Shown in pieces: positions 1 through 16,708 of a stretch of DNA of 64,000 bases. The stretch lies in assembly GCA_000092065.1 (NCBI GenBank), contig CP000587.1; one strand, given 5' to 3'. Numbering within the stretch: the first letter of the stretch is position 1; each line of letters starts with the position of its first letter. A program made the translations under genes and the position numbers. The notes below the pieces were generated by a model, which worked only from the letters and a program-made list of their open reading frames with translations, was not told where the DNA came from and did no database searches. The DNA comes from Ostreococcus lucimarinus. Its lineage: Eukaryota.

Positions 1-196
1 CCCTAAACCCTAAACCCTAAACCCTAAACCCTAAACCCTAAACCCTAAACCCTAAACCCTAAACCCTAAACCCTAAACCCTAAACCCTAAACCCTAAACC
101 CTAAACCCTAAACCCTAAACCCTAAACCCTAAACCCTAAACCCTAAACCCTAAACCCTAAACCCTAAACCCTAAACCCTAAACCCTAAACCCTAAG
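1..196. repeat. Telomere repeat array, (CCCTAAA)x28; complement TTTAGGG (plant/algal type). A degenerate unit CCCTAAG follows at 197-203.
   Basis: Direct reading: 28 perfect heptamers from base 1. The C-rich strand reading 5'->3' is what a left chromosome end should look like. Confidence 0.95.
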
Positions 197-427
197 CATG
201 AGGGAGGGAGGCGCTTCGGGAGAAGTGCCGTAACCGACCGACTAGCTAATACTTATTACACCTCACCCTAGGTTCTCTGCGTCGTACTGAGGCATGAAAA
301 GTCACGATCATTCGCATCCTTCCTGTGCACCTGCACGACACCCGACGGCCAGCACTCGTCGACCAGCACGGCACCGCAGACTTCCCCCTCGACGCTCCGG
401 ACGTCTCCGGACTAAAACCTAAAAATA

Positions 428-595
428 GCGATATGGTGACGTGAGCGGTTTCCGCGAGCGTTTTCGTCAAAAACGCATCAAAACGTTCAATGGCTTGCAA
501 GAGGCGCTAGTCTACAAGCTATCGTGTCACACACCGCGCCTTTTTCGTTCAGACCGCCGTGGAGAAGCAAAAACACACGCTTCGACGATGGCGAC
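428..595. repeat. Left copy of a 168-bp inverted duplication. It covers the 3' end (last ~36 codons plus 3' flank) of the kelch gene.
   Basis: Reverse complement of 428-595 matches 8184-8351 essentially base for base. ORF-track pairs 524..757(+)/7908..8255(-) and 441..746(+)/7634..8623(-) share identical peptides (MSHTAPFSFRPPWRSKNTRFDDGD; SGFRERFRQKRIKTFNGLQEALVYKLSCHTPRLFRSDRRGEAKTHASTMAT). Confidence 0.9.
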
Positions 596-1986
596 ACCAC
601 GGCGCTCGCCGACATACCTTCCTTGCCAATTAGAGCGCACGACTCCGCGAAGAGCGTCCACCGACACTTTCGCTCGTCCACGCACGCTCGTAAATCGAAC
701 GTGTACGCATCCTGGGTTGCGTTTTCGTTATCGCCACCACCAATGACGAACCACTGATTTCCAATCGCTACGGACGCGTGCGCCGCGCGAGGCGATGGGC
801 GATCACCGTCTTCGTTGTCGCCATCGACAGTTCCCCACTCGCCCTTGACGACGTCGTACACGTCGACTGCGCCGCAATCGCATAACTCATTGCCAGTCGA
901 ACCGCCGCAAACGAGCAAATATCGTTCGTCGACACTCGTCGCTGCGTGCGAACTTCGTGGACGCGTCCCATTCGCTAATTTCTTCCACACCGTCGTCGTC
1001 GGTGTGAACTCCCAAAGTTCATCTAAGTCGTCTCCCGTCTTCGCGTCGACGCCGCCGAAGATGAAAATTCGATCGCCGATCGCAGTCGAAGTGTGACCGG
1101 ATCGCGCACGCGGAGGCGTTGAAACCTCATCGCTTGTTTCACAACGCACGTGCGTCCACTTGAAATCTTTCGACGCGTAATCGGCGGTCAAATCAATGGC
1201 GCTCACCGTGAGACTGTACACACCGTCGACGTCGCAGTCATCCGCTGATTTCCCTCTAAAGGCGTACAGTTTCGATCCTATCGTCGCGCTCGCCGCGCCC
1301 GCGCACGTCGACCCAGGCCACTGCAATTTGCGTTCGGCCCACGCACCCGTGGCCAGGTCGAACGCCCACAAATCACCGAGTAATCGCGAGCGTGAGCCTC
1401 GACCGTGCGAGAAGAAGATGGTGTCGCCGTCCACCACAGCGGACATATGTCCAGACCGCGCGCGTGGTGAGACCTTGCTCAGGATTGGAAGTCTCACAAA
1501 CTCATCGTCCGCCGCGCTGGCGAACATTTCATCTAAAAACGCCGTCGGTCCCGTGGAGGAATTGAACGCGAGCGCGCGGCGAGCGTCCTTCGTCTGCGCC
1601 AGTCGCGCCGATTCCCCTAGTGCCCCGCTCGCTAACGCGCGATAATACTCCAGCGCGCACTCTTTCGCCGTCGCAATCATCGCTCGTTTCTGTTTTTCGC
1701 TCATACCTCGCACGAGCATGTCAAACCAATCGGCGTATCTCGAACTTATCACTTCGCAATACAGCTCCATCGCGCGCTCTGGGCTAATATTCCCCAGCAT
1801 GCTCCACGCGTCGTACGCCAGCGCGCCCGCGGGATCCCACAAATCCCACGGTCGCGTTCCTTGACACGGTCCACGCGACGCTTGTCGCTCCAGCGCGTCC
1901 AGGAGCAAGGTTTTGTCCTCGTCAAACAGCACCGCGTCCTCAACGCCATCGGCATCGTGCGCGCGCGACATCGCCTGTCGACCCAT
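487..1986 (-). CDS. Kelch-repeat (galactose-oxidase/beta-propeller) protein. The N-terminal ~200 aa domain is unassigned.
   Basis: ORF 487..2250(-). Repeated kelch signatures are present (GDTIFFSHGRG...LWAFDLATGAW; GDRIFIFGGVD...LWEF; YLLVCGG; WFVIGGGDN). The first 88 ORF residues are Arg-rich read-through, so the likely start is MGRQAMSRAHD at ~1986. Confidence 0.7.
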   Translation of the reverse strand: MGRQAMSRAHDADGVEDAVLFDEDKTLLLDALERQASRGPCQGTRPWDLWDPAGALAYDAWSMLGNISPERAMELYCEVISSRYADWFDMLVRGMSEKQKRAMIATAKECALEYYRALASGALGESARLAQTKDARRALAFNSSTGPTAFLDEMFASAADDEFVRLPILSKVSPRARSGHMSAVVDGDTIFFSHGRGSRSRLLGDLWAFDLATGAWAERKLQWPGSTCAGAASATIGSKLYAFRGKSADDCDVDGVYSLTVSAIDLTADYASKDFKWTHVRCETSDEVSTPPRARSGHTSTAIGDRIFIFGGVDAKTGDDLDELWEFTPTTTVWKKLANGTRPRSSHAATSVDERYLLVCGGSTGNELCDCGAVDVYDVVKGEWGTVDGDNEDGDRPSPRAAHASVAIGNQWFVIGGGDNENATQDAYTFDLRACVDERKCRWTLFAESCALIGKEGMSASAVVSPSSKRVFLLLHGGLNEKGAVCDTIACRLAPLASH

Positions 1987-2024
1987 GGTGACTATGGCGT
2001 CGAGCTTGGCGGCGGCATTGTTGG

Positions 2025-3278
2025 ATGTCGAAGCGCTCGCGCGCGCGCGGAACGCGCACGCGAGATAAAACCGTTCAGGACCGCGCATGGGAGGCGCGAG
2101 ATGACGCGATGCGGTTGGTCCGCGAACGGTCGTTCGGGACGACCGTGCCTCTCGCGCGGTTCGCCGCACACGATGGCGCCGCGAACGTCGATATCGACGA
2201 GATGAACGACGACGAACCGCGAAACGCCTTCGAGCGCGCAGCGCGCTCACTCGAGTGTCCTTGGTACGTGGCGATGATGCGCGACGCAGAAACTACGCTC
2301 GACGACCTCGCGAAAAGTGTCGAGAACGACGAGAACGAGGACGACGCTTTCAGAACGAAAGCAATTTCTGCGCTCTCCGACATCGGCGTGGAGACGAAAG
2401 ACACGATGGCAATCGTGGATCACGTGCTTTCATCGCGCGCGCGCGCGCGTGCGCCCGCGATGGCGGTGACGCACGGCGACGCTCGAGACGTCATAAAGCG
2501 CACGCGCGGAGGCATTTATGACGAATCTTTTCTCAGCGCGATCGAGCCGCTGTATGATTTACACATGGGCGCGGAAAATATGGGACCTTTGTTGTACGCA
2601 ATCGCTCGGTTTTGTAAGCCCGCGCACGTGTTGGAAGTTGGCGCAGGGTACACGAGCATCTTTTTGCTCCAAGCGATGCGAGACAACGCCGATGAAATTG
2701 CGACGTATCGAGCGATGATTCAGCGTCAGGAGGCGCGCATCGGCGACGTTCCTTGGACAGCACCTGATTATGACTATGAAAAGCTCGACGCGTCAACTCT
2801 TCACATCGTCGACAACTGCGCGCACGAGCATACTACGGCGCATCGAGTGAAAGAGGTTGCTCAGGCGCTGGGGTGCGAATCGTTTTTGCGCGTCCACGTC
2901 TGCGATGCGTTCGACAGCGAGCTACCAAGCACGTTGGCCGTTCCAGATGTCAAGTACTTCGACCTGTTGTGGATCGACTTAGGCGCCGCAAACCGCATCG
3001 AAGGCTTCTTCGACGCCTGGTGGAGTCGAGTGAATCCATGCGGTGGTTTCGTCGTCGTGCACTCGACGCTGACAAATACGCTGTCGCGTAAATGGCTGGA
3101 AAAGATGCGAAAGCTCGCCCGAGACGGGGGTCGCGACGCCGAGACTGGAGCATCGCCTTACGGGGAGTTCGTCACTGTGAGTTTCCTGGAACCGCATAAG
3201 ATGTTCCAAAACTCGTGCTCGTTTTTCCAACGACGCCAAAGCTCGTGGACCGAACGCACCTTGACGAAGTATCCATAG
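2025..3278 (+). CDS. Class I SAM-dependent methyltransferase (O-methyltransferase-like Rossmann fold)
   Basis: Motif I VLEVGAGYTS; acidic post-I residue; LLWIDLG; VVVHSTL. The 5' end is uncertain because the ORF start overlaps the divergent kelch ORF extension. Confidence 0.55.
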   Translation: MSKRSRARGTRTRDKTVQDRAWEARDDAMRLVRERSFGTTVPLARFAAHDGAANVDIDEMNDDEPRNAFERAARSLECPWYVAMMRDAETTLDDLAKSVENDENEDDAFRTKAISALSDIGVETKDTMAIVDHVLSSRARARAPAMAVTHGDARDVIKRTRGGIYDESFLSAIEPLYDLHMGAENMGPLLYAIARFCKPAHVLEVGAGYTSIFLLQAMRDNADEIATYRAMIQRQEARIGDVPWTAPDYDYEKLDASTLHIVDNCAHEHTTAHRVKEVAQALGCESFLRVHVCDAFDSELPSTLAVPDVKYFDLLWIDLGAANRIEGFFDAWWSRVNPCGGFVVVHSTLTNTLSRKWLEKMRKLARDGGRDAETGASPYGEFVTVSFLEPHKMFQNSCSFFQRRQSSWTERTLTKYP

Positions 3279-3351
3279 CGTAGCTTAGCGTAGGCATAGT
3301 TCGAATAACGGTACATTTTGTTTTCCTATATTTTCCATTCTAGAACATGAT

Positions 3352-6300
3352 CTACATTTTGCTCTCGTCGCTATATTTGCACCCTTCTTTCGCGAGGTAA
3401 GTGTTCCAAACGCCGCCGTCCGCGCATTCCCACAGGCTATTGTCCTCCACAATCGGCATGCTCACCGAAGGAACTTTACGCCAGACGCTACACTTGTGGC
3501 ACTGTTTCCAGTTCACCTCTTCGTCCTCTTGCATGCCCGCGTCGCCGCCGACGATTTTGCTTACGTCAATGTCAACGTTGCCGAGGCTGAGAATGTTCAC
3601 CGCGGCGGCGTTGCCAGTGACGACTGCACCGTGCACACATTGCGGTCCAGTAATTGAACACGCCTCTCCGGCGAAGTAAAGCCGTCCATCGTGCTCTGGA
3701 GCGGCCAAAGCCTCGACGTCGAGAACAGTCGTGCCGGTGCGCGCATACGAATACGCGCCAAAAGAGTGCTCGTCGTTTCCCCAGTTCGTGACGATGTAGT
3801 CATCTGGCACAGGAAGTGACTTCAACCGAAACATCTTCTGCAACACTCGACAAACGCCGCGAACAATTTCAAGTTCATCTTTACCGTCGAAGTCGTGCGC
3901 GTACGGCGGGGCGACATGCGCTAACAGGGTGTGTTTTTTGCCGTACGCGTCTAAATTCAGAAAGCGATAACGTGGATCGGTGACTTGGAAGAATTTCGAC
4001 TTCGGCCAAAACATTTCTTTGAAGCGCATGTAAACCTTATTTTCGGTACCCATTCCTATGCGTTGAATCGCGCGCAACTTTTGATCGCTCAACGGCGGCG
4101 TGAACTCGATGCGATTCTTTTTTAGGACACCCAGTGGCACGGTGACAACGACGTAATCGCACGGATGCTGCGTCCCGTTTGTGCACGTAACACAGTATGA
4201 CTTCTGCTTTGCCTTGATCTGTTGTCCAAACTCGTTCATGAAAGATGTCTCGTCGACTTTCACACGATTGACGACGTGCTCATACTTGATATCGAGCGCG
4301 CCATCTTTCTCCCCAATTAATCGATCTATGAGCAGGTCTTTGTATCCATTCACGACCATGCCGTCAGAAAAATCTAACTGTTTGTTTTCCACCTTGCCCG
4401 GCGGCCGTTTTACGGCGGAGTCCACTGTGGACGCGTCACTTTCGCTTTCGACATATGATGTTTCATTTGCGTTGACTGGCCCATCAGGGGCGAGAATGTC
4501 TCTGATTTCGTCTTGCACATTTCGCTCGAAGACGAAGGACAACTCTCGCATAGGCGCAACGAACGCCCAAGTGATTACTGGTATCGAATCATACACTGGT
4601 TTCACCTTTTCAAAACGTTTCTTCCCGTTAAGTAAAGAGTTCACGATTTGGTTCGTCGCGTAGTTGAAGGCGTCTTCCAAGGAGCAATCAGAATTTTCCT
4701 CGATTTCATCGTAACCTCTCGCCGACGGCGACGCGATAAAATGCTGCGCCTGTAACTGTTCGTTTTGTGTGCTTTTTATCGGCACGCACAGCGACCGCTC
4801 AATGTCCTCGGCATTTTTAATAAACATTATTTCAGTCGCCTTGCGCGAGATTTGAAACGCCTGCGCAACGTCTTGTTCTTTCACGCGTCCGCCCTCGGCG
4901 TTATACCACGACGACTTTTCTCCCCATCCAGCGCTGTAACCGCCACCTGCCGTGTTGAGCGCGACTTTATGCTTCTTGGCAATCGCATACACAGGATTGT
5001 AATCGTGGCAACCATGAATGAACGATGCACCGAGATCAACCTGCACGCTCGGTAAGCCCGCGCTCGCCATCTCCCGCATTTCAACGGTGTTGCAGCGCCC
5101 ACCTGGTCGGCTGCGCGACTCTAAAACAACTACGGATGCACCATGATTTTTCAAACTTCTCGCCGCAGCCAGTCCAGCCGGACCGGCACCGACGACGACG
5201 ATAACTGGTGACGGGTTTCCGCCCCACGGCACGTTGACCGGTTTCGCTGGCTTTTCCTCGATTCGTTTCTTCGGTACAGGCTTTTTGACCGCGTCGTTGA
5301 CGTCGCACTTCTTCTTGGTTGCCTTTGTTTCCAAGTCATCAGCAGAAAGCTTACGTTTGGGTGTCACCGGTTTCGATTTGATGACCTTCATCGTCGTCGA
5401 CGCCAACGCATCTTTCGGAACACCATTTTCGACCACCACCGCTGACACCGTCGTCGTCAACTCCGGAAGAGTTGAAGGGACATCCAGCCGCTGACCTCCC
5501 TCGTCATATACTCGCTTCCACCTTTTTCGCAAATCTTTTGCGTAGACGCGAGCTCGGTCGAGGTATCTTCTTATGGATTCGTTAGAGCGTAAACGATTCA
5601 TGTGTGTGCCTATCTCGACTTCACCAGTCGCCGAGCAGTTCGTAAACTTGAGTTTCTCTCCGGTGGTGCGATCGATTCTGATGAACGCTTTATCAATGTT
5701 CTGTGGATTATCCTTGCGCGCTTGCGCGAAAACGTACACGTCGCCATCCCACCACGTAATTCTATTGAGCGGTGCGTCAAATTCCTCGTTCGTCTCGAGC
5801 ACGTCGTGCAGCGGTTTCGGCGGTAGCGCTGGCGCCAAGACTCTGAAGTACTGCCTCTTCTTCATCAACTCGGTCGATGTCTTACCGGCGTTCTTCACCA
5901 ACACCATGCGATCGCACGTCTCTCGTAAGGTCTTCGCGTCAGTGTGAATCGCGTAGCGCGCGCAGTTCGAGGGTGGAAGCAACAAAACTCGATTGGAATT
6001 GAGCAATCGAACGGCGCGTAGTTTCGCGTCTGACACCTTCTTGACGTACTCCTTCGCATCCAAAAGCACTCCCGGTATCAACTCGCCGTCAAATTCGTCT
6101 GCTATACTCACCGCGCACCACTTGGCGCTCGCTACTTTCGCTGTCTTCGTCTTCGCTACTTTCGCTGTCTTCGTCTTCGCCGCGTTCGCTGTCTTCGTCT
6201 TCGCCGCGTTCGCTGTCTTCGTCTTCGCCGCGTTCGCTTGGCTCGGGCGCATCTCGCAATCACTGAATTTCACGTCATGTCGCTTCCTCGCGGGCGGTAA

Positions 6301-6399
6301 AGGCGCGATGACGTCTTCTTCGTTGTCGTCGTCGTCGTCAACCGCCGGCATGTGAGACTCCCGTGAGATTCCTCGAGCGCTTGCCGCGTGGTTCGACAA
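3352..6399 (-). CDS. LSD1/KDM1-like flavin amine oxidase with a C-terminal CW-type zinc finger and an N-terminal Lys/Thr-rich repeat (putative histone demethylase)
   Basis: FAD-binding fingerprint VVVGAGPAGLAAARSLKNHGASVVVLESRSRPGGR. C-terminal amine-oxidase block (YSYARTG...RLYFAGEA). Terminal W-x-QC-x2-C-x-W...WEC CW finger (NWKQCHKCSVWRKVP...WECADGGVWNTY). N-terminal ANAAKTKT x5 repeat. Confidence 0.75.
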   Translation of the reverse strand: MSNHAASARGISRESHMPAVDDDDDNEEDVIAPLPPARKRHDVKFSDCEMRPSQANAAKTKTANAAKTKTANAAKTKTAKVAKTKTAKVASAKWCAVSIADEFDGELIPGVLLDAKEYVKKVSDAKLRAVRLLNSNRVLLLPPSNCARYAIHTDAKTLRETCDRMVLVKNAGKTSTELMKKRQYFRVLAPALPPKPLHDVLETNEEFDAPLNRITWWDGDVYVFAQARKDNPQNIDKAFIRIDRTTGEKLKFTNCSATGEVEIGTHMNRLRSNESIRRYLDRARVYAKDLRKRWKRVYDEGGQRLDVPSTLPELTTTVSAVVVENGVPKDALASTTMKVIKSKPVTPKRKLSADDLETKATKKKCDVNDAVKKPVPKKRIEEKPAKPVNVPWGGNPSPVIVVVGAGPAGLAAARSLKNHGASVVVLESRSRPGGRCNTVEMREMASAGLPSVQVDLGASFIHGCHDYNPVYAIAKKHKVALNTAGGGYSAGWGEKSSWYNAEGGRVKEQDVAQAFQISRKATEIMFIKNAEDIERSLCVPIKSTQNEQLQAQHFIASPSARGYDEIEENSDCSLEDAFNYATNQIVNSLLNGKKRFEKVKPVYDSIPVITWAFVAPMRELSFVFERNVQDEIRDILAPDGPVNANETSYVESESDASTVDSAVKRPPGKVENKQLDFSDGMVVNGYKDLLIDRLIGEKDGALDIKYEHVVNRVKVDETSFMNEFGQQIKAKQKSYCVTCTNGTQHPCDYVVVTVPLGVLKKNRIEFTPPLSDQKLRAIQRIGMGTENKVYMRFKEMFWPKSKFFQVTDPRYRFLNLDAYGKKHTLLAHVAPPYAHDFDGKDELEIVRGVCRVLQKMFRLKSLPVPDDYIVTNWGNDEHSFGAYSYARTGTTVLDVEALAAPEHDGRLYFAGEACSITGPQCVHGAVVTGNAAAVNILSLGNVDIDVSKIVGGDAGMQEDEEVNWKQCHKCSVWRKVPSVSMPIVEDNSLWECADGGVWNTYLAKEGCKYSDESKM
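6131..6240. repeat. 24-bp tandem repeat, ~4.5 copies (gc[tc]ac/gcgttcgctgtcttcgtcttc), inside the LSD1-like CDS. It encodes the (A)NAAKTKT repeat.
   Basis: Direct reading of 6121-6240. The peptide repeat is visible in ORF 3352..6399(-) and mirrored in ORF 5993..6355(+) (FAVFVFA x5). Confidence 0.8.
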
Positions 6400-6565
6400 C
6401 GCGACCGCGATCGCGCCGCGACTGTCAGGTGCGTTCGGTCGACTCCGTCGCAGTCCGTTCGCGCGTGCGCCCAGCGTCGACGCAGAGCGGCGCGCGCGTT
6501 GACGAACTTGGCCCGGCGCGCGAGCGCCCCGCTGTGCGGCCGTTCGCCACTCGACGTCGCTCGTC

Positions 6566-7945
6566 GTGTCGAGTCAAGGTCGTGGTGTCTCGATGCGACA
6601 TGGCGACGCCAAGGTGGCGTTCGTGAGCGACAATCCAGGGACGTCGTACGGTGAAGTCAACGCCGTGGTGTTCGTCGTCCTCGTCGCCGCGTGGGCGTGC
6701 GTCACAGTTCGCGAACGATGCAAGTCATGGGCGTCGACGTCGACGAAGACGACGCTTTTAGTGGGTACAGAGACGGCGATGCTCGCCTTGGCGACTTTGG
6801 CGAGCATGTTTGCGGTGACGAAGGCCTTGGCCGTGGCCTGCGCCGTGGCGGGAGGCTGCTTCTTGTACTGGGCTTGTAATGCGCGCCCAGCGCTGGGAAG
6901 CCGCGCCAACAGCGCCGCGTTTACTTGCGAAGATGCGCTCACGCTGTACAGGTTTACGCTCGCTATGATGACCGTCGTCGCCATCTTGGCCGTAGACTTT
7001 ACCCTCTTTCCTCGACGTTTGGGCAAGACGGAGACGTACGGTGTGTCCCTCATGGACGTCGGCGCCGGTTCGTTCGTATTTTCTTCGAGCGTCGTCTCGC
7101 GATTCGCTCGAGGCAAGGAAAAGCGAAACTTGCGCGCGAGTCGGCGTAAAGTGATGCAAGTCATGCTGTTGGGTTTAGCCAGGCTTGCGATCACGACCAT
7201 GATCGGGTATCACTCCGTCGAGACCGAGTACGGACGGCACTGGAATTTCTTCTTCACTCTCGCCGTCATTCAAGTGTGTGCGGACACGCTTCCAATCGCA
7301 GCGCACAGGGCGTTGCCCTTCGGTTTATTGATTTCGTTCGCGTATCAGTACGTGTTATCCTGTCACGGCTTGAGCGCTTGGATCCTGCAAGCCCCCGATG
7401 TGCGATCGCACGAGTCCGAGACGAATGTCCTGACAAGGTTCGTCTCGATGAACCGAGAAGGCGTCTCGAGCGCGTGCGGTGGGTACTTTGCGATCCATCT
7501 CATAGCGGCGCATCTCGGCAACGCGCTCTCGAAACCGGTGTTGAACTTTTCAAGGTGGCTACAAACGATGGCGATCGTGACCTGTGCTTTTTGGTTTGCG
7601 GCCATCGCATCTCACGCGTATGTCGAACCAACATCAAGGCGCGCTGGGAACGCAGCGTACGTGCTCTGGATCGTCGCCTTCAATCTGCAAGTCATCATTG
7701 TTTATGTTTGTATGACGTGGTTTGCGCGAAGCGCGAACGGACGGGGGAAGTGCGACATTCCGGTATTGGCGAGCGCGATCAATCGTCGACAACTTTTCGT
7801 GTTCGTCGTCGGAAACGCTCTGACTGGGCTGACGAATTTGGCAGTGGACACGATAAATGCCGACGCTAACACGGCTTGGGGAGTGATGTCGCTGTACTTG
7901 TCGGCGATTAGCATAGTTGCGCTCGCGATGGATCGTAGAAAATGA
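6566..7945 (+). CDS. GWT1: GPI-anchor inositol acyltransferase GWT1/PIG-W
   Basis: Multi-pass membrane ORF with the family motifs LMDVGAGSFVF and EYGRHWNFFFTLAV. Start is 6566 or the Met at 6593. Confidence 0.75.
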   Translation: MSSQGRGVSMRHGDAKVAFVSDNPGTSYGEVNAVVFVVLVAAWACVTVRERCKSWASTSTKTTLLVGTETAMLALATLASMFAVTKALAVACAVAGGCFLYWACNARPALGSRANSAAFTCEDALTLYRFTLAMMTVVAILAVDFTLFPRRLGKTETYGVSLMDVGAGSFVFSSSVVSRFARGKEKRNLRASRRKVMQVMLLGLARLAITTMIGYHSVETEYGRHWNFFFTLAVIQVCADTLPIAAHRALPFGLLISFAYQYVLSCHGLSAWILQAPDVRSHESETNVLTRFVSMNREGVSSACGGYFAIHLIAAHLGNALSKPVLNFSRWLQTMAIVTCAFWFAAIASHAYVEPTSRRAGNAAYVLWIVAFNLQVIIVYVCMTWFARSANGRGKCDIPVLASAINRRQLFVFVVGNALTGLTNLAVDTINADANTAWGVMSLYLSAISIVALAMDRRK

Positions 7946-8183
7946 TTTGCAGATTCGCGAAGCAGTACAGCGTTCCGCGCGATGAGCACGTCGCCGTCGA
8001 CGTGCGTCGTTCGTGCGTCGACGGAGGGCGCACGATCGAGTATGACGTCGCGTATCTCCCGTGCGACGTCGCCGTCGACGCCGCGCGAGCGAGGCTCGCG
8101 AAACCAACGAATTGACGTAGCGGATAGAACGTAGCGGTGAAACTGAATTTGGAAGATGTTGGAATGCAAAACGATTCACCCAC

Positions 8184-8351
8184 GTCGCCATCGTCGAAGC
8201 GTGTGTTTTTGCTTCTCCACGGCGGTCTGAACGAAAAAGGCGCGGTGTGTGACACGATAGCTTGTAGACTAGCGCCTCTTGCAAGCCATTGAACGTTTTG
8301 ATGCGTTTTTGACGAAAACGCTCGCGGAAACCGCTCACGTCACCATATCGC
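8184..8351. repeat. Right copy (inverted) of the 168-bp duplication. On the + strand it carries a kelch 3' pseudo-exon (...SPSSKRVFLLLHGGLNEKGAVCDTIACRLAPLASH*).
   Basis: Same evidence as the left copy. Upstream of 8184 the frame diverges from the kelch protein and stops within 60 codons, so this is a gene fragment and not a second kelch gene. Confidence 0.85.
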
Positions 8352-8457
8352 GACGCGCTACTGGGGAGCGCGTGCGGTGGCGCCGCGATAAAGCGCACGA
8401 ATCGTAGGCCGTAACTCGCGTTCGATCGCACGCCGAAGCACGACGCGACGCGTCGAC

Positions 8458-11400
8458 ATGGGCGTCGATCGCGCTCGCGCTCGTAGGTTGACCGAGAGCG
8501 AGAACGATGACGACGACGACCGAAGTCTCGACGCGCGCGAGGAGGTTGGAGATGGTGACGACGAGAGTGACGAAGAAGATGTGGACGGGGATAGTGTTGT
8601 ACGCGCGTCTCTGGAACGCGCAAGCGAGCGAGATGCGGAGATTGCGGATGAGAGGGATACGCGAGTGCGAATACTTCTCATTCGCGAACGGGACGCCGAG
8701 TTCGCGCGAGATCCAAAATTTAAATCGCGATCAATCGCCGAGTTGAACAACGAAGCCGTGCGATATTTGAAAGCCGGAGACGATGTCAAGTGTGTGGTGG
8801 CTTACGCCAAGGTGTTTCGAAAGGTTTCTGAAAACAACGTCACGCACCCGACGCTATACGTGTGCCACTCAAATCGCGCATTCGCGTACTTGAACTTGGG
8901 TCTATTTCAAGAAGCTCTGTGGGATGGCCATCGCGCGCAGACATTGGCGAATGAGCGTTTCACGCAGTTACAAGATGACGACGGGAGTGTCAAGGTTTTC
9001 GTGAAGGGTTACGCGAGGAAGGGTTTCGCGCTCATGGGTTTGCGGGAACCGAAACTCGCAAAGCTCGAGTTTGAGCGCGGATTAACCATGAGCCCGACCG
9101 ATGAGGAATTGAAGCGCGGTTTGGAAGAGGCAACGCAAGCAGTCATTCGTGATTTATACATCGGACGCGGAAAAGAGAAACAATATGCCCTGCCGAGCTC
9201 CGGGAAAACGAGTGAGAGAATTTCGTCGCTGCCGTACTCGGCGCCGCTTCACCGTGTGCATCCTCGCGATATGCTGCCCAACACGCTATTGACCCCATTC
9301 CAAGCCGAAAATGATTATCATCTGAAGGACACGTACAATTATATGACGATTCAAGCCGATATTCGCGTCCCGAAGAGACATTTCAAGGTTTTACAAGACG
9401 ACGTTCGGCGCGCCAAGTTCTCTACGGCGATTAAATGCGCAATCGACAAGATGCACGACGACGCCAAAGATGCACGAGTTTTGAATATCGGTTGCGGTGC
9501 GGGATTAAATACAATGTTGGCGTTGAAACACGGTGCGCATCACGTGACGGCTACCGAGCGCTGGCTGTACCTCGCCATGGCTACGAAGGAGAATTTGTTG
9601 AACAACGGATACAGTGATGACCAAGTCAAAGTCGTGTACAAGCGTCCGACTGATCTCGCGTTGCTTCGCGATGTCCCAATATCGTGCAACGTGTGCGTGT
9701 GCGATGTATTTGACGACGGTTTGCTGAGTTCGGGGATCATTCCCGCCGTTAGGCATGCCTTGGACAAGCTATTGTTGCCAGACGCAGTCGTCATTCCGTC
9801 GAGCGCGACGCTGTACGCCCAAGCCGTCGATATGCGCACGCCCGCCTTTGACGGAATCAATCTCAGCGCGATAGACGGTTACAGATGGCACCCAACGTAC
9901 ATTGCAGGCATTGATTTATTCGAGAACGCGTACATCACTCTGAGCGATCCTGTGCAAGTGTTCCAATTTGACTTCCTCATGCCGCCAGACTGTAGCGAGA
10001 AGAAGACGATTGATTTAACGTTTACGAAGCGCGGCAAGTTCAACGCCGTGGTGTTTTGGTACGAGATGACTTTGATTGATGATGTGAAAATTTCAACAAA
10101 ACCTGGTGGTGAAGATTGTCCTTCTTCGATGCGCGCCGCTGTCCAGTTCATGCCCGGGAAAATATCAATAGAAGAAGGCAGCGTGTTGCCACTCACGTGC
10201 GCGCACAACACAGTCGGTATACAGTTTAGTGTCGAAGATGCAGAGTACGATCAAGTGACGAAAAAAGATGCCAGTTTTCCAAAATATCACTTTCACATGC
10301 TTCGCGATGAGGGGCGTCTGCACGCGTATTCGGACGCCCTCGGGCGTCAAGTTGCGCGAATCAAGGCTCGCGGAGACACGTGCAGGGCGCTCGACATCGG
10401 CACGGGAAGCGGTATACTCGCCATGCTCGCCGCGCGAGCGGGTGCGGATTCCGTCGTCGCTTGCGACACGCATCCATCGCTCGTGAGCGTCGCTAGACGA
10501 AATGTTGCCGCGAATGGTTACGGATCTCAGGTGAGCGTCCTGAAGCGCGACGCGACGCAACTCGAACGCGGCAAGCATGCGCCATACGACGGCGTTAATC
10601 TTATCGTTCTGGACGTCTTCGACGCCGGACTCACCGGAGATGACGTGTTGGACATGATAGAAGCAGCCCGTAAGCAATTGAGCGCATCTACGTGCGCAGT
10701 CGTTCCCGCGGCGGCGACGATTTATTGCGCAGGCATCGAAGCGTACACAAGCGAAGTCGACGGTTTCAACATGAGCGCCTTCAACAAGTATAGATGGGAC
10801 AGCACGTACGAGGCGACGTACATGCGAGACCAGCCTTACCGAGTGTTGACAAAACCCAAAAAAGTATTCGAATTCTTCTTTGATGACTCCCAGAAGAGCA
10901 AGGGCAGGGAAACCGTGCTAAAGATGGAGACAATCGCGCACGGCTACATGAATGCGGTGTGTTTTTGGTTTGATTTGCACATGGACGAAGAAGAGACGAT
11001 TACGACGGCACCGCTAGGGATTGGAAAGGGTGGTACAATTGAAAATCAACGCATTCTCGGCGACTTTGACGGTGCGCATGCGAAAAAGGTCATGTGCGAA
11101 TCTCTTCGCAGAGTTCGAGCGAACATGGCGTCGAATCCACGAAGCGAAGACTTTGAAAGCGACTCTGCGCGCGAGGGATCAAGCGACAGGACCGTTTTTG
11201 TCTCCGATGCCACGTCCTTAGGAGATGATGAATTCGACGACGACGATCGCGAGGAGCACTATTGGGGGCAGGCGCTGCAATACCTCGAACGCGGCGTCCA
11301 GGTGCGCGCGGGAAAGAAAATCGCGCTCTTGGCCAAGCGACAAAACGGCGGCGTGCACTTTAGTTTAAAAGAGGGCGTCGGAAATTGGGTAGGAAAACCA

Positions 11401-11700
11401 CCGTGGAAGATTGAATGGGGCGGCGGCGCGTCCGTGGAGAGCCCACATTTCCAGCGCGTGCACTATTGCCAATTGCTCGTCAACGATTTTCTGATGCGTC
11501 TACGATGCAAACGGTTCGCGCCGATCGAAAAAGACATGAAGATGATTCTCGCGCATTGCGGTGCGCTGTTTCTCGAGCCTCATAGCTTGACTGACATATA
11601 CCATCACTTAGTCATGCTAGAAGTGTACTTTGATTGGGAAGACTTCTCCCCGGGAACGAAGGTTGAATCGATGACGAAGCCGTGTTTGCGCCTGTGCTAA
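8458..11700 (+). CDS. PRMT9-like protein arginine methyltransferase: N-terminal TPR repeats followed by two tandem PRMT modules
   Basis: TPR-like segment (AYAKVFRK...HSNRAFAYLNLGLFQEAL...KGYARKGFALMGL). Module 1 has VLNIGCGAGLNTM...CVCDVFDDGLL. Module 2 has ALDIGTGSGILAM...LIVLDVFDAGLTGDD and a THW-like loop EHYWGQ. The [DE]xFDxxL loop is of the PRMT7/9 type. Confidence 0.75.
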   Translation: MGVDRARARRLTESENDDDDDRSLDAREEVGDGDDESDEEDVDGDSVVRASLERASERDAEIADERDTRVRILLIRERDAEFARDPKFKSRSIAELNNEAVRYLKAGDDVKCVVAYAKVFRKVSENNVTHPTLYVCHSNRAFAYLNLGLFQEALWDGHRAQTLANERFTQLQDDDGSVKVFVKGYARKGFALMGLREPKLAKLEFERGLTMSPTDEELKRGLEEATQAVIRDLYIGRGKEKQYALPSSGKTSERISSLPYSAPLHRVHPRDMLPNTLLTPFQAENDYHLKDTYNYMTIQADIRVPKRHFKVLQDDVRRAKFSTAIKCAIDKMHDDAKDARVLNIGCGAGLNTMLALKHGAHHVTATERWLYLAMATKENLLNNGYSDDQVKVVYKRPTDLALLRDVPISCNVCVCDVFDDGLLSSGIIPAVRHALDKLLLPDAVVIPSSATLYAQAVDMRTPAFDGINLSAIDGYRWHPTYIAGIDLFENAYITLSDPVQVFQFDFLMPPDCSEKKTIDLTFTKRGKFNAVVFWYEMTLIDDVKISTKPGGEDCPSSMRAAVQFMPGKISIEEGSVLPLTCAHNTVGIQFSVEDAEYDQVTKKDASFPKYHFHMLRDEGRLHAYSDALGRQVARIKARGDTCRALDIGTGSGILAMLAARAGADSVVACDTHPSLVSVARRNVAANGYGSQVSVLKRDATQLERGKHAPYDGVNLIVLDVFDAGLTGDDVLDMIEAARKQLSASTCAVVPAAATIYCAGIEAYTSEVDGFNMSAFNKYRWDSTYEATYMRDQPYRVLTKPKKVFEFFFDDSQKSKGRETVLKMETIAHGYMNAVCFWFDLHMDEEETITTAPLGIGKGGTIENQRILGDFDGAHAKKVMCESLRRVRANMASNPRSEDFESDSAREGSSDRTVFVSDATSLGDDEFDDDDREEHYWGQALQYLERGVQVRAGKKIALLAKRQNGGVHFSLKEGVGNWVGKPPWKIEWGGGASVESPHFQRVHYCQLLVNDFLMRLRCKRFAPIEKDMKMILAHCGALFLEPHSLTDIYHHLVMLEVYFDWEDFSPGTKVESMTKPCLRLC

Positions 11701-11814
11701 AGCACACAAACTTTTTAACACACATTTACTTCTCCTCTTATGCATTAAAACAACGTAACGTACAACGACTATTTGTGGCGCCGAATTTCCGACCAAGACC
11801 ATGACTACCCTCCT

Positions 11815-12370
11815 CTAAAACTGCAAGTTTGCGATTCTTTCCTTCTCCGCCTGTCGGCGCGCCAACTCGGCTCGTCCGGCCGCGGTCTTTTGCAGCTCGT
11901 GCACCGTCTTCTCCTTCCCACCCTTCACCGCAGCGCCTTGCGTCGTCACACCACCCGAAGCGGCGTGCGCGTCCGTCCAGTCTGCGAACACAAACGGGAG
12001 TTTGGCGTGTTTGCTATCCCAGTGCGCGACAGCCGTCTTCTCGCTCGGCGCGCCCTGCGCGCACACGGGACATTTGAACTTGGCGTGTCCCGCCGCTCCA
12101 CCGAGTCGGTCCGCCTTACCGCTCTTCCCACCGCCCTTGTTCGTGAGCGCGGCCGCAGCCTTACTCGCGAGCTCCTTCGCCGTGTGCTGCGCGATAATAT
12201 TCGCCGTCAGTCTCGTGGTCGCGTCGCGCGTCACGCGTGCGTCGCGCCCATCGCGCGTCCGTCCGCGGCGGCGGTCATCGCGCGGCGTCGTGCGGCGTCG
12301 CGCGGCGTCGCGACGCGACGAACGAACGACACGATGAACGAACCTTTTTCGGCTTCGCCTTTCCAGCCAT
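11815..12370 (-). CDS. SERF/4F5 + C2H2 (ZNF706-like) small basic protein, 2 exons: 12344..12370 (MAGKAKPKK) and 11815..12186
   Basis: Exon 2 encodes ...KGGGKSGK...AKFKCPVCAQGAPSEKTAVAHWDSKHAKLPF, matching the ZNF706 C2H2 (YTCTVC...FKQHFESKHPKTPL). No Met lies in frame upstream. ATGGCTGGAAAGGCGAAGCCGAAAAAG|GTTCGT (ORF 12275..12499(-) tail) gives a phase-0 first exon that joins to a cgcag| acceptor at 12187-12188. Confidence 0.5.
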
Positions 12371-12552
12371 CGCGCGCCGTCCGTCACCGTCGACCTTCGC
12401 GTCGTCGTGCGCGGCGCCCAGGCGCGCGCGTTCGAGACGTCGCCGCCGTGTCGGGCGGCGAGACTGCTTACTACACGGACGGCGACACGCGCGCGACACG
12501 TCGCTCGCCGTCCCACGCGCCGTTCCGTCTTTACTCGGCGCGCTCGATCACG

Positions 12553-13690
12553 ATGGCGACGACTCAAGAAGTGAAACTGTTCGGAAAGTGGACGTTCGAT
12601 GACGTTGAGGTGCGTGCGCTCCATCCCGACGCCGCGCGACGCACGCGCGGCGACACACCGGCGGCGATGCCGATGGCGATCGCGGCGTTTTAGGGTCTTC
12701 GCGAGGGCGTCGCGCGACGCGATCGCGCGCGCGCTGCGCGTCGATGAGCGCTCAAAATGAACGATGAGACTGACGAACGCGCGTGTTGGATTACAGATCA
12801 ACGACATCTCGTTGGAGGTTCGTCACCGAGACGAGCGATGCGCGCGAACGCGAGCGAGACGCGGGCGCGGAAGATGATTGGAAAACCCTGGCGCGTCCAC
12901 GGACACGTCGCGGGCGCGCCCGCGCGGCGCGGCGCGCGACGAACGCGAGACGCAGACGCGGAGTGGACGAGGGGCGATATAAAGCATCGTTTCGCTCGCT
13001 CCCGTCGGCGTGGACGCTCGCGGAACGACGACGTCGTCGGTGCCGTAGCACGGGGCTTTTGACTGGGACGTCGCGCGCCTCGAGGACGCAACGGGGGAAC
13101 TGCAGAATATGTCGTCGGGCGTGAAGCGACAACGTAGACGCGATCTCGAAACTGACCACACATCTGTTCGTCACGTCTCGCAGGATTACATTGCGGTGAA
13201 GCCGAAGTACGCGGTGTACGTGCCGCACACCGCGGGTCGATTCGCCGCCAAGCGTTTCCGCAAGGCGCAGTGCCCGATTGTTGAGCGCTTGGTGAACTCG
13301 CTCATGATGCACGGTCGTAACAACGGTAAGAAGTTGATGGCTGTTCGCATCGTGAAGCATGCGATGGAGATTATTCACTTGCTCACCGACCAAAACCCGG
13401 TGCAAGTGATCGTCGACGCCATCATTTACGCTGGTCCGCGCGAAGACGCGACGCGAATCGGTTCTGCGGGTGTGGTTCGCCGTCAAGCGGTCGATCTCTC
13501 CCCGCTCCGCCGCGTGAACCAAGCCATCTACTTGTTGACCACTGGTGCCCGCGAATCCGCCTTCCGTAACGTCAAGACGATTGCCGAGTGCTTGGCCGAC
13601 GAGTTGATCAACGCCGCCAAGCAGTCGAGCAACTCTTACGCGATCAAGAAGAAGGACGAATTGGAACGCGTCGCGAAGGCTAACCGATAA
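12553..13690 (+). CDS. RPS5: 40S ribosomal protein S5 (uS7), 3 exons: 12553..12609, 12797..12817 (21-nt microexon) and 13184..13690
   Basis: Exon 1 is [25 protein letters not shown]. The microexon is ttacag|ATCAACGACATCTCGTTGGAG|gttcgt (INDISLE). Exon 3 begins at cgcag|GATTACATT (DYIAVKPKY...). The spliced product FDDVEINDISLEDYIAVK aligns without a gap to human FDDVQINDISLQDYIAVK. The rest of exon 3 is near-identical to RPS5 through ...[18 protein letters not shown]. Confidence 0.9.
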
Positions 13691-13812
13691 GGGGTGAATC
13701 TTTCTGGCGTCGGAGACTATAGCTCATATACCGGTGTAAGAAGGAAAGGAAAATATAGCTTCAATAAACGCTTGCGTCGCGCGCGGAGTGATGCGTGTGC
13801 GAGGATTTCGAT

Positions 13813-14670
13813 TTATTTCACTTCTAACTTTTGCTGATTATGCCAAGCAACAACGTCGTCGTACTTGAGCGCACCACCGAAACAATCGAGGGCAGAACCT
13901 ACGGTGATGTCGACCATCCCTCGCCCAGCTGCTTTGACAAGTTCGAGATCGTCCAAGCTGCGTGCCCCGCCCGCGTACGTCACTGGAATAGGGCAGAATT
14001 CGCCGAGAAGTTCGACGAGTTTTAAGTCGATTCCCAGCTTCATCCCTTCCACATCCACGCCGTGAACTAAAAACTCATCGCAGCATTTCGCCAAACGCTC
14101 CATCGTCGACCCGTCCACGGCTAAATCGGTCCACTTTTGCCACCTATCCGTGACGACTTTGTACCGGCCGTCGGCGTCGTCCAAACGGCAGCTCAAATCG
14201 AGCACGAGTTTGTCCGCGCCGACCGCGCGAATCATCTCGCTCAGCGCGTCCTCGTTCAGCGCCCCGTCTCTAAATACATAGCTCGTCACGATCACGTGCG
14301 AAGCTCCCGCATCGAGCAACTCCGAGGCGTTCGTCGGGTTGACGCCTCCGCCGACTTGTAACCCGCCCGGGAACGCTCGCACCGCCTCTTTCGCCGCTCG
14401 CAACGTCGCCTCGTCTTTGCTCAGCAATATCGCGTGGCCGCCGTATATGCCGTCTCTTTTGTACATCTCAGCGAACGCCGAGCTCGGGGTTTCAGTCTCA
14501 AAATTCGTCGCCGGCGTCTCCGAACCCGCGTCCCCGGGGCGCGCATCTTTGAGCGTGCTGCCGACGATTTGTTTCACCTTGCCGTCGTGGATATCGATGC
14601 ACGGACGAAACCGAACCGCGCGCGCGTGCGGCGCGAGCGCATTCACCGCGACGACGGTCGCCGCGCGCAT
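13813..14670 (-). CDS. HIS6: ProFAR isomerase HisA (eukaryotic HIS6-type) with a short N-terminal presequence, histidine biosynthesis
   Basis: FRPCIDIHDGKVKQIVGSTL, the VLDLSCR...VTDRWQKWTD barrel and the C-terminal GxD motifs are present. ORF 13813..14820(-); likely start is MRAATVVAV at 14670. Confidence 0.8.
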   Translation of the reverse strand: MRAATVVAVNALAPHARAVRFRPCIDIHDGKVKQIVGSTLKDARPGDAGSETPATNFETETPSSAFAEMYKRDGIYGGHAILLSKDEATLRAAKEAVRAFPGGLQVGGGVNPTNASELLDAGASHVIVTSYVFRDGALNEDALSEMIRAVGADKLVLDLSCRLDDADGRYKVVTDRWQKWTDLAVDGSTMERLAKCCDEFLVHGVDVEGMKLGIDLKLVELLGEFCPIPVTYAGGARSLDDLELVKAAGRGMVDITVGSALDCFGGALKYDDVVAWHNQQKLEVK

Positions 14671-14860
14671 GTCGAGCCAACACCGAACGCCGCCGCCGCC
14701 GACGACGACTTTGCCGCCGCGCCGCGACGAACAGTGCGTCCCGAAACGAACGCTCGCGAACGACGAGGGTTTAGAATTTATTATGTGCTCGTGTGTGCAA
14801 ACACTCACAATACCTGCCACAAAAGTTCAATGCGCGTGCTCGTGGATCCGTGGATAAAAG

Positions 14861-14930
14861 ACGACGGCGACGGCGTTGGCGACGGCGACGGCGACGGCGA
14901 CGGCGTGGGCGATGGCGCCGACACACCGCG
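14861..14930. repeat. (GACGGC)n hexanucleotide microsatellite upstream of eIF2A
   Basis: Direct reading: gacggcgacggcgttggcgacggcgacggcgacggcgacggcgtgggcgatggc. Confidence 0.7.
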
Positions 14931-14974
14931 CCGACGCGCGCGACGGCGACGGCGACGCCGAGGGTGTCGGCGCC

Positions 14975-16708
14975 ATGACGCCTCTCATGACGGTCACCGA
15001 GCGCACGCCGATCGGGATGAAACACTGGAAGTTTCACGACTGCCCGAGCACCATCGGCGCGAGCTCGGACGCCGAGGCCGTGGCGGCGTACGATGCGCAC
15101 GACTTTCGTGCCGACGTCGTGGGCGGCGGTGACGACGTCGAGGCGCAGTGCGGTGATACGGCGACGTATTCGAGAGACGGGACGTTATTCGCGTGCGCGA
15201 ACGGCGATACGGTGGAAGTGTACGACGCGAGCGTCGAACCTTTCGCGCTCGCCGCGACGCTCGACGGCTTGCCGGGAGCGAGCGCGTTGAACTTTTCGCC
15301 GTCGAAGACGTATTTGGCGATTTATCAGAAGCAAACCTCCACGGGAGCGTCAAAGGATACGAAAAACATGACGATATGGAACATAACAGGTTTGACGACG
15401 AACCGCGCGCCGCCGCGCAAAGTGTACGAAGTGTTCCAAAGGCAGTTTCTCAAAGCCGAGTGGCCGTACTTTCAGTTTAGCGACGACGACTCAACCGCGG
15501 TTCGGTGCGTGAGTAATGAGATTCAAATCATTCGTCCGGCTGAGGGATTCGACAGACATGCTCGACTTCGAGTGCCTTCTGTGGCGGTGGCGAAAATATC
15601 GCACGGATCGACGCCAAGAGTGGCGTGCTTCGTACCCGAAGTCAAGGGCGCGCCTGGATCGGTTCGCATCTACGAGCTCGCTCAGCACACAGAAGAGGGG
15701 GTGGTGGAGAACCCGACGCCGGTCGCACGTAAGTCTTTCTTCCGCGTCACTGAAGTAGATTTGATGTGGGCCCCAGATGGCTCCGCGGTGTTGATTCTAG
15801 GCTCGAGCGAAGTCGACGCGACAAACAAGTCTTACTACGGCGAGAGCTGCTTGCATTACCTCAAGGCGGATGGCTCTTTTGAGGGTGCGGTGCCGCTGAA
15901 CAAGGAAGGACCCGTCCACGACGCGCAGTGGTCGCCTTGCAGCGACGAATTCGGTGTGGTTTACGGATACATGCCCGCGAAAGCGACGATTTATAAGGCG
16001 GCACAGTGTGAGCCCAAGTATGAACTCGGCGCGGGTCCGCACAACACGCTTCGATGGAACCCGTTTGGACGTTTCGTCGCTCTCGCCGGTTTCGGAAACT
16101 TGCCCGGTGACGTCAAGTTTTTTCAAAAGATGAAGGATGGTAAGTACAAACCCATCGGATCGACGCGGGCATCGTGTTCTGTGACGTTAGAATGGTCTCC
16201 GGATGGTCGAAGACTGCTCACGAGCACGATAGCTCCTCGCCTGAACGTCGACAACGGATGGAAAATTTGGAGGTACAACGGAGATTTGTTGCTCCACGAA
16301 GAGCGTGCGAAGATTTATGAGGCGACGTGGCGTCCAGTTCCCGACGGCACGTACGAAGATCGCCCGATTTCTCCCGCATCCAAGCGTGTGGAGAGCCAAG
16401 GCGGCGCGGTTTTGACGAATGCGTCGGAGGCCACAAAAGGGGCGTACCGTCCGCCGCACGCAGCGAAAACCGCGTACCGTCCGCCGCACGCCACGAGTGG
16501 AAGTGGTAACTTTAGTCTCGCCAAGGCCTCGGAAGAAGACATGAAGGCTGGAAAGTTTAAGGCGGCTGGCGCCAAGGAACCCGCCAAGGCGGACGCCGGC
16601 GTCCCGGGGGCGGGCGCGCAACTTTCAGCCGCGGCGGCTAAAAACGCAAAGAAACGAGCGGCGAAGAAACGCGCCGCGAGCGCAGCCGCGGCGTTAGAGA
16701 AACTTTAA
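14975..16708 (+). CDS. EIF2A: Translation initiation factor eIF2A (beta-propeller, Lys/Ala-rich C-terminal tail)
   Basis: YGYMPAKATIY, AGFGNLPGDVKFF, TSTIAPRLNVDNGWKIWRYNG and an AYRPPHA x2 repeat match human eIF2A blocks. The ORF starts at 14876; the homologous N-terminus begins at MTPLMTV (14975). Confidence 0.8.
   Translation: MTPLMTVTERTPIGMKHWKFHDCPSTIGASSDAEAVAAYDAHDFRADVVGGGDDVEAQCGDTATYSRDGTLFACANGDTVEVYDASVEPFALAATLDGLPGASALNFSPSKTYLAIYQKQTSTGASKDTKNMTIWNITGLTTNRAPPRKVYEVFQRQFLKAEWPYFQFSDDDSTAVRCVSNEIQIIRPAEGFDRHARLRVPSVAVAKISHGSTPRVACFVPEVKGAPGSVRIYELAQHTEEGVVENPTPVARKSFFRVTEVDLMWAPDGSAVLILGSSEVDATNKSYYGESCLHYLKADGSFEGAVPLNKEGPVHDAQWSPCSDEFGVVYGYMPAKATIYKAAQCEPKYELGAGPHNTLRWNPFGRFVALAGFGNLPGDVKFFQKMKDGKYKPIGSTRASCSVTLEWSPDGRRLLTSTIAPRLNVDNGWKIWRYNGDLLLHEERAKIYEATWRPVPDGTYEDRPISPASKRVESQGGAVLTNASEATKGAYRPPHAAKTAYRPPHATSGSGNFSLAKASEEDMKAGKFKAAGAKEPAKADAGVPGAGAQLSAAAAKNAKKRAAKKRAASAAAALEKL

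Follow-up and report, generated by a model that had tools for sequence, protein, structure and literature searches.

A perfect inverted repeat at an Ostreococcus lucimarinus chromosome end, probably the scar of a microhomology-primed repair followed by inversion

The reference genome of the picoalga Ostreococcus lucimarinus CCE9901 carries, at the left end of one chromosome (assembly GCA_000092065.1, contig CP000587.1), a pair of 168-nt inverted repeats that enclose four genes. We analysed a 64,000-nt stretch of this contig (hereafter the window) and compared it with contigs of the same species from public assemblies. The repeat is probably a repair scar: an inverted copy of the 3' end of a kelch gene, primed by microhomology at a damaged chromosome end, after which the enclosed block was flipped by recombination between the two arms. 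The progenitor, a repeat-bearing form with the block unflipped and the flipped form are all found, and the junction of the duplication lies in a 13-nt inverted microhomology.

The arms of the repeat (428–595 and 8184–8351) are complementary at 168 of 168 positions (100%) and are separated by 7588 nt. An initial annotation, made from the letters of the same DNA, had reported a near-perfect 168-bp inverted duplication at these positions; the duplication is confirmed, and it is perfect. A 41-nt probe taken from the arm found two sites only in the 64-kb window, against zero expected in shuffled sequences, and a scan of the whole window returned no other inverted pair longer than 49 nt or above 78% identity. 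The annotation had suggested comparing the window with itself, and in that comparison the 168-nt pair is the only long inverted repeat. The features on which the argument turns are these:

428–595, minus strand: left arm, the functional 3' end of the ACBP-kelch gene (last 35 codons, stop codon at 487–489 and 59 nt of 3' flank)
8009–8183, plus strand: element F, a relic subtelomeric element that lies at the chromosome end in the ancestral haplotype and 8 kb inward here
8184–8196, plus strand: 13-nt microhomology GTCGCCATCGTCG at the rearrangement junction, common to the subtelomeric element (inverted) and the kelch coding sequence
8184–8351, plus strand: right arm, a kelch 3'-end copy that is not functional, flanked by the GWT1 stop (7945) and the PRMT start (8458)
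8352–8437, plus strand: kelch-PRMT spacer of 86 nt, duplicated too in the longer (254-nt) arm of contig L029

The two arms differ in status. In an alignment with nine orthologues of 50–66% identity, the C-terminal 35 residues, which the arm encodes, show HGG, T, C and L invariant, and because the kelch C-terminus is conserved among them the left arm is taken as the native copy. Upstream of the right arm the kelch frame meets an in-frame TAG at 8125–8127, and the sequence before 8184 bears no relation to kelch; for both reasons the arm is a pseudo-exon, as the initial annotation had correctly described it. Judged from the sequence, the copy on the PRMT side is a derived, dead fragment, while the kelch-linked copy is native coding sequence. 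The right arm also completes a 42-codon, ATG-initiated open reading frame (8164–8292, MQNDSPTSPSSKRVF...LASH*) directly upstream of PRMT, which could be an upstream open reading frame or meaningless.

Contigs were gathered from public assemblies by exact look-up of the PRMT, kelch and GWT1 proteins, and those of the same species are 99.1–99.9% identical to the window. They show three structures. Contigs of the single-copy form run telomere, subtelomeric element, GWT1(-), LSD1(+), methyltransferase (MT)(-), kelch(+), R, PRMT(+), where R denotes the 168-nt unit; the 7.6-kb block lies in the opposite orientation to that of the window, and the 168 nt occur once. This form is found in L014, L015, L016, L018, L027 and L030, with L012, L020, L028 and L034 as doubtful members, giving at least six assemblies, or 10 if the doubtful class is counted. 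L017, too, has one copy of the repeat and the block reversed. Within L018 there is no inverted repeat of 30 nt or more, and in the Logan contig L011 kelch, R and PRMT follow one another uninterrupted. The window form is shared by L013, L019 and L039, the first of which matches window positions 70–21705 at 99.84%, with the telomere, the flank 's' between telomere and left arm, and both arms included. In the third form, which bears the repeat but is unflipped, the order is arm (reverse complement), F (reverse complement), GWT1(-) ... kelch(+), R, PRMT (L029, L033, L035, L036 and L044–L046).

The junction between F and R, which marks the duplication, occurs in 10 independent metagenome assemblies produced with different assemblers; it is internal and runs into PRMT in the window, L013, L019 and L039, and is terminal in L029. 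The numbers of assemblies per form are not frequencies: the look-up ranks places by the DNA flanking the query gene, and because this biases the orientation displayed, orientation counts were not used in that way. Both orientations exist, with the same junction sequences and with linkage swapped across the repeat (arms of 168 versus 254 nt), and wild populations still carry original, repaired and flipped versions of this chromosome end. Among the origins proposed in the initial annotation, a subtelomeric inversion or break repair is borne out by the single-copy haplotypes, which carry the block reversed, and by the 13-nt microhomology at the junction; the synteny comparison it recommended likewise finds the 7.6-kb block reversed in same-species single-copy contigs. 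Its further idea that the repeat is a substrate for flip-flop recombination holds at the level of haplotypes only, in that repeat-bearing haplotypes occur in both orientations (the window versus L029).

Where the duplication began can be read beside the right arm. In the single-copy contigs F (8009–8183) is followed by CGACGA[T/C]GGCGAC and then by about 44 nt, designated 'u', beyond which lie clean CCCTAAA repeats in L018 and degenerate CTAACCCTAGTTT repeats in others. Read from the telomere, L018 thus runs through clean CCCTAAA, about 44 nt, CGACGACGGCGAC, F and GWT1(-). Further copies of F were sought with a 26-mer from F across JGI metagenomes. F together with the 13-mer and 'u' was found beside telomere-like repeats on contigs with different genes (L021, L024 and L026), and the element, about 175 nt long, is also internal in L022; the copies are 86–98% identical. 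L024 has two tandem F copies near the contig end, and the sequence preceding F differs among variants (..GGGACGACGACGGCGAC or ..CGCACGCATAC). These occurrences indicate that F is part of a multi-copy subtelomeric element, and since it is subtelomeric and multi-copy, the progenitor of the window had GWT1 as its terminal gene. The initial annotation overlooked that 8009–8183, beside the right arm, is a relic of this element, which gives the event its direction. We relied on the element for direction because outgroup synteny was uninformative, the three lineages compared (see below) all being arranged differently.

The repeat opens with 13 nt of kelch codons, and the 13-mer is their reverse complement. 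It matches at 13/13 positions in L015 and L027 and at 12/13 in the other single-copy contigs; where the match is exact, the subtelomeric element contains CGACGATGGCGAC, the reverse complement of window positions 8184–8196 and 583–595. Allowing up to one mismatch, the 13-mer has no site in the 64-kb window besides these two. Because the 13-mer is the inverted start of the repeat, the duplication begins exactly at an inverted microhomology between subtelomere and kelch. Neither the window nor L029 has the 'u' segment or the telomere-like repeats that single-copy haplotypes carry; in their place stands an arm with 's' or with the segments Y and X.

The contig L029 is the only decisive one among the unflipped repeat-bearing contigs. 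It reads (CCCTAAA)n, CCCGGACGTCTCCGGACT, X (about 95 nt), Y (about 45 nt), the reverse complement of window 8437–8184, F (reverse complement), GWT1(-) ... kelch(+), R, PRMT. Its arm is 254 nt long, comprising the 168 nt and 86 nt more of the kelch-PRMT spacer. Relative to the internal copy the terminal arm has two 4-nt deletions (AGCC and GCGT), and the longest exact stretches shared by the two are 101, 88 and 65 nt. These fall short of the k of 141 used in assembly, so that L029 resolves how the block is oriented and the choice was not arbitrary. X is likewise found on the distal side of F in two single-copy contigs, L015 and L030; its retention in L029 implies that the distal subtelomere was kept and that only the stretch from X to the 13-mer was replaced, by Y and the inverted kelch copy. 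In L029 the inverted copy is on the same arm as its source and the intervening block still has its ancestral orientation, as would be expected if a break in the subtelomeric element had been followed by microhomology-primed templated synthesis. Because this contig has the duplication without the inversion, we place duplication first and inversion second.

The course of events that we favour begins from an observed structure: telomere, subtelomeric element (..u, 13-mer, F), GWT1(-), LSD1(+), MT(-), kelch(+), PRMT(+). A break or erosion within the subtelomeric element would have left a 3' end finishing in the 13-mer GTCGCCATCGTCG, which would have annealed, inverted, to its sole nearby match, 7.6 kb further in and within the last exon-equivalent of kelch. 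The partner could have been the same strand, once resected, or the sister chromatid. Synthesis from there would have copied 155–241 nt, comprising the kelch C-terminus, the stop codon and 3' flank, and the new end would then have been rejoined to distal subtelomeric DNA, or healed or captured. The product of such a repair is seen in L029, as a terminal inverted pseudo-copy of the kelch end with gene order unaltered. Homologous recombination between the arms would later have inverted the 7.6-kb block to give the window arrangement. There kelch stands beside the telomere and uses the outer arm, and the relic of the subtelomere and the other arm are stranded upstream of PRMT. The signs of a templated inverted duplication are present, namely an inverted microhomology at the junction, an inverted copy on the same arm and the loss or replacement of distal sequence; in yeast, hairpin- or microhomology-primed synthesis ending in template switching or telomere addition is documented (PMC7467729). 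As the window arms are identical, either the event is young or the arms are being homogenised, and the recent event proposed in the initial annotation is consistent with the 100% arm identity and with the lack of a fixed single-nucleotide polymorphism (SNP) between structural classes.

Several points weigh against this reading. The 7.6-kb loop and the 13-nt microhomology are far larger than in yeast fold-backs, where loops are mostly below 50 nt (PMC7467729). The outer ends of the arms differ, with 168 nt followed by 's' in the window versus 254 nt followed by Y-X in L029, and the arms are 100% identical in the window versus separated by two deletions in L029; the two haplotypes may be separate events at the same microhomology and not stages of one lineage. 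Flank 's' (197–427) and Y find no match elsewhere in any fetched locus, save for a 17-nt motif. Metagenome contigs are population consensus sequences, and in these the informative SNPs (16 sites in 7.6 kb, 9 in 9.1 kb) include none fixed between structural classes. Moreover, where the arms are identical over 168 nt, more than k, de Bruijn assembly of short reads orients the block arbitrarily. Finally, we infer the steps beyond the starting and final structures from contigs only.

Because their arms are identical, most unflipped repeat-bearing contigs (L033, L035, L036 and L043–L046) are uninformative on orientation. The flipped form is found in the reference and in three contigs from other assemblers (L013, L019 and L039); we take the CCE9901 genome to have been finished with Sanger reads, and the reliability of the reference across the 168-nt repeat rests on that assumption. 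Arm variants also occur: in L019 the kelch-linked and F-linked arms differ at position 86, and the F-linked arm of L033 has a variant at position 70. SNP phasing was considered for dating and set aside, with few sites and none fixed between classes; as the contigs are consensus sequences and no SNP is fixed, we draw no conclusion on age or on a single origin. A further class, 'I-b' (L012/L037, L028/L041, L020 and L034), in which F is joined to ..CGCACGCATAC and, in two contigs, to genes from another locus as well, was also left unused: the join of F to x315 recurs after a different gene in L022, and the genes in question lie at another chromosome end in L024. We did not build on this class because its members may be chimeras through the 175-nt F repeat. 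Among the other contigs, L033 begins with Nextera adapter sequence (positions 1–33), and an ENA 'contig' of 104 Mb in ERZ23491652, with the O. lucimarinus PRMT among bacterial-type genes, looks concatenated.

The main rival to a patch followed by a flip is a fold-back that passed through a dicentric chromosome. It starts from the same junction and microhomology: an eroded end primed on the 13 nt, in itself or in the sister chromatid, would have produced a hairpin-capped or dicentric chromosome that broke 59 nt past the kelch stop and was healed by telomere capture. Such a route would yield the window orientation directly, with no later flip, and it fits the degenerate telomere-like heptamers at 414–427, which abut the left arm as they would at a healed break. 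Yeast fold-backs resolved through dicentrics are documented (PMC7467729), and lines of Ostreococcus mediterraneus show terminal deletions with regained telomeres (PMC13390643). However, the breakage must have chanced to fall just outside an intact kelch gene, and L029, with its terminal junction, unflipped block and retained distal element X, is left unexplained; we consider this route unlikely. L029 also speaks against a two-break inversion with staggered cuts, the model developed for Drosophila, which cannot give a duplication without an inversion. Under that model one break around the 168 nt and another in the subtelomere would have been followed by inversion and by a fill-in that duplicated the 168 nt. 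An ancestral single-copy sequence does now form an inverted duplicate at both ends of the inverted segment, the pattern described by Ranz et al. 2007 (PMC1885836), but the model predicts 'u' and telomere-like repeats at the left arm, where the unrelated 's' is found although the PRMT side is conserved, and it predicts no microhomology where 13 nt are present. The chance that it applies here is very small.

An active switch, by which the 7.6-kb block would invert recurrently in living populations with a possible regulatory role near the telomere, would account for perfect 168-nt arms 7.6 kb apart, whose identity could reflect gene conversion, and for the occurrence of both orientations among repeat-bearing haplotypes (window, L013, L019 and L039 versus L029). 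We nevertheless regard it as quite improbable: only one unflipped contig is resolved and its arm length is unlike that of the window, no recombinase gene was found in the block by Pfam, the genes and their immediate flanks are alike in both orientations with no switchable product evident, and a single historical flip accounts for the data. It is hardly credible that the repeat is an assembly artefact, or a dispersed repeat or shared terminator module. While subtelomeres are prone to misassembly, the F–R junction and both arms recur in independent assemblies of 10 samples made with different assemblers; and while the neighbouring 175-nt F is truly multi-copy, the 168-nt unit occurs twice in 64 kb and is single in the ancestral haplotypes, it includes conserved kelch coding sequence, and an Rfam scan of window 1–9000 gave no matches. 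The same copy counts do not fit a dispersed repeat or the terminal inverted repeats of a transposon, and the genes between the arms are ACBP-kelch, a methyltransferase, an amine oxidase and GWT1. The initial annotation had also considered a shared terminator or 3' untranslated region module, which is contradicted by a unit that is single-copy in the ancestral haplotype and present nowhere else in the window; misassembly and dispersal, which it had named as the findings that would undo a local duplication, are contradicted by the 10 independent assemblies and the copy counts.

As we read it, the locus is a new instance of known processes, a templated inverted duplication at a broken end and then inverted-repeat recombination. 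Inversion by homologous recombination between inverted repeats is known from the plastid inverted-repeat isomers and from the yeast 2-micron plasmid. Those systems share with this one near-identical inverted arms and a segment found in both orientations with the same junctions and swapped linkage; here, in contrast, there is no dedicated recombinase, the arms are only 168 nt long, arm length differs between orientations and the isomers are known from separate haplotypes. As for the first process, human inverted duplication-deletion rearrangements are fold-back-type inverted duplications at broken ends. Fold-back inverted duplications in Saccharomyces cerevisiae gross chromosomal rearrangement assays resemble the present case in the inverted copy on the same arm, the short inverted microhomology at the junction, the distal break and the loss or replacement of distal sequence, and the primary product here (L029) keeps the spacer orientation as they do (PMC7467729). 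They differ in that the tract copied here is short (155–241 nt) and does not run on to a dicentric, and in that laboratory and tumour events are selected whereas this is a probably neutral polymorphism in wild populations. Staggered-break inversions (Ranz et al. 2007, PMC1885836) likewise leave a single-copy sequence duplicated and inverted at the ends of a block, with both arrangements recoverable, but here the outer flank is not conserved, there is a 13-nt microhomology, and one haplotype has the duplication without the inversion. Within the genus, the small outlier chromosome of O. mediterraneus shows terminal deletions and regained telomeres, and so offers a parallel in chromosome-end breakage, repair and telomere maintenance (PMC13390643). 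Its events are deletions and translocations of 15–470 kb on an outlier chromosome under virus selection (PMC13390643), unlike the small templated patch and inversion described here, on a chromosome that corresponds to one of about 0.77 Mb in O. tauri.

Explanations of the inverted duplications found at inversion breakpoints usually have only end products to go on. Here the progenitor, the repaired but unflipped state (L029) and the flipped state (the reference) are all recoverable from public data, with the junction resolved to the base, and together they support a route of duplication first and inversion second, unlike the staggered-break model. At this end the arrangement in the reference genome of a model picoalga is derived and of a minority type. 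There is also a practical warning, that short-read metagenome assemblies orient such a block arbitrarily when the arms are identical. Every structural form leaves all five genes intact, together with the sequence immediately flanking them; because no gene is disrupted, the structural polymorphism is probably neutral, is unlikely to serve a function and probably has little biological consequence.

Looking beyond the species, O. tauri (L001) and the relatives L003 and L007 each have a different arrangement at this locus. In all three GWT1 and kelch are directly adjacent and head-to-head, and PRMT is found in either orientation. Comparison of window 1–16600 with these contigs indicates that the neighbourhood is a rearrangement hotspot across the genus. 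O. lucimarinus differs from the three lineages in having the MT and LSD1-like genes between GWT1 and kelch and in having no Mre11 beside GWT1; in L003 the GWT1-kelch pair lies between eIF2A and an ABC transporter.

A second chromosome end, represented by L024, carries NT, MATH-BTB, x319, PLATZ, an aminotransferase and a PIH1-like gene, followed by F and telomere-like repeats. It is rearranged in other contigs: the order in L022 and L021 is PIH1-F-x319, the NT/BTB block of L037 is inverted and its joint shows a 22-nt overlap, and in L021 a 2.5-kb block lies between two inverted F copies. These variants may reflect the same kind of terminal reshuffling, or they may be assembly chimeras through F. 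A broader proposal would be that F-primed patches and arm recombination form a recurrent, still active means of reshuffling the terminal genes of Ostreococcus, with the block flipping repeatedly in living populations; it would explain the internal F relics (L021, L022, L024 and L037) and several interspecies inversions at the locus, but it is speculative and we hold it to be rather unlikely.

The remaining features of the chromosome end in the window are as follows:

1–196, unstranded: telomere of 28 CCCTAAA repeats; telomere and flank occur also in metagenome contig L013
197–427, unstranded: flank 's', telomere-proximal, belonging to the derived haplotype; among fetched loci only in L013/L038
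397–413, unstranded: 17-nt motif CCGGACGTCTCCGGACT within flank 's', 14 nt from the left arm
414–427, unstranded: degenerate telomere-like heptamers AAAACCT and AAAAATA within flank 's', abutting the left arm
487–2088, minus strand: ACBP-kelch gene, 533 aa (Pfam ACBP and kelch)
2025–3278, plus strand: Methyltransf_24 methyltransferase (MT) gene (Pfam)
3352–6399, minus strand: LSD1-like flavin amine oxidase gene (Pfam amine oxidase)
6593–7945, plus strand: GWT1 gene, 450 aa (Pfam GWT1)
8458–11700, plus strand: PRMT7/9-like arginine methyltransferase gene (Pfam PRMT), the fixed flank of the rearrangement

The gene content that the initial annotation had read between the arms (kelch, methyltransferase, LSD1-like and GWT1) is correct, with gene identities confirmed by Pfam. 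PRMT has exactly the protein sequence of XP_001418581.1 (O. lucimarinus CCE9901), and its Pfam profile comprises two methyltransferase regions and a weak TPR match. The exact ACBP-kelch protein is found in 302 blocks of the public assembly collection, and the nearest other kelch cluster takes in O. tauri proteins. The 17-nt motif CCGGACGTCTCCGGACT of flank 's' also lies directly beside the telomere in L029 (L029 positions 121–137). On metagenome contigs the MT gene is 389 aa long, which would put its start near 2109; the kelch and MT start codons on those contigs are head-to-head and about 20 nt apart (2088–2109), leaving an extremely short divergent promoter region. The N-terminal region of the LSD1-like gene contains a 24-nt tandem repeat (6105–6248) encoding units of the AKTKTAN(A/V) type. 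The LSD1-like protein is called as 919, 975, 983 or 991 aa depending on the contig, and the copy number of the 24-nt repeat therefore appears to be polymorphic in the wild.

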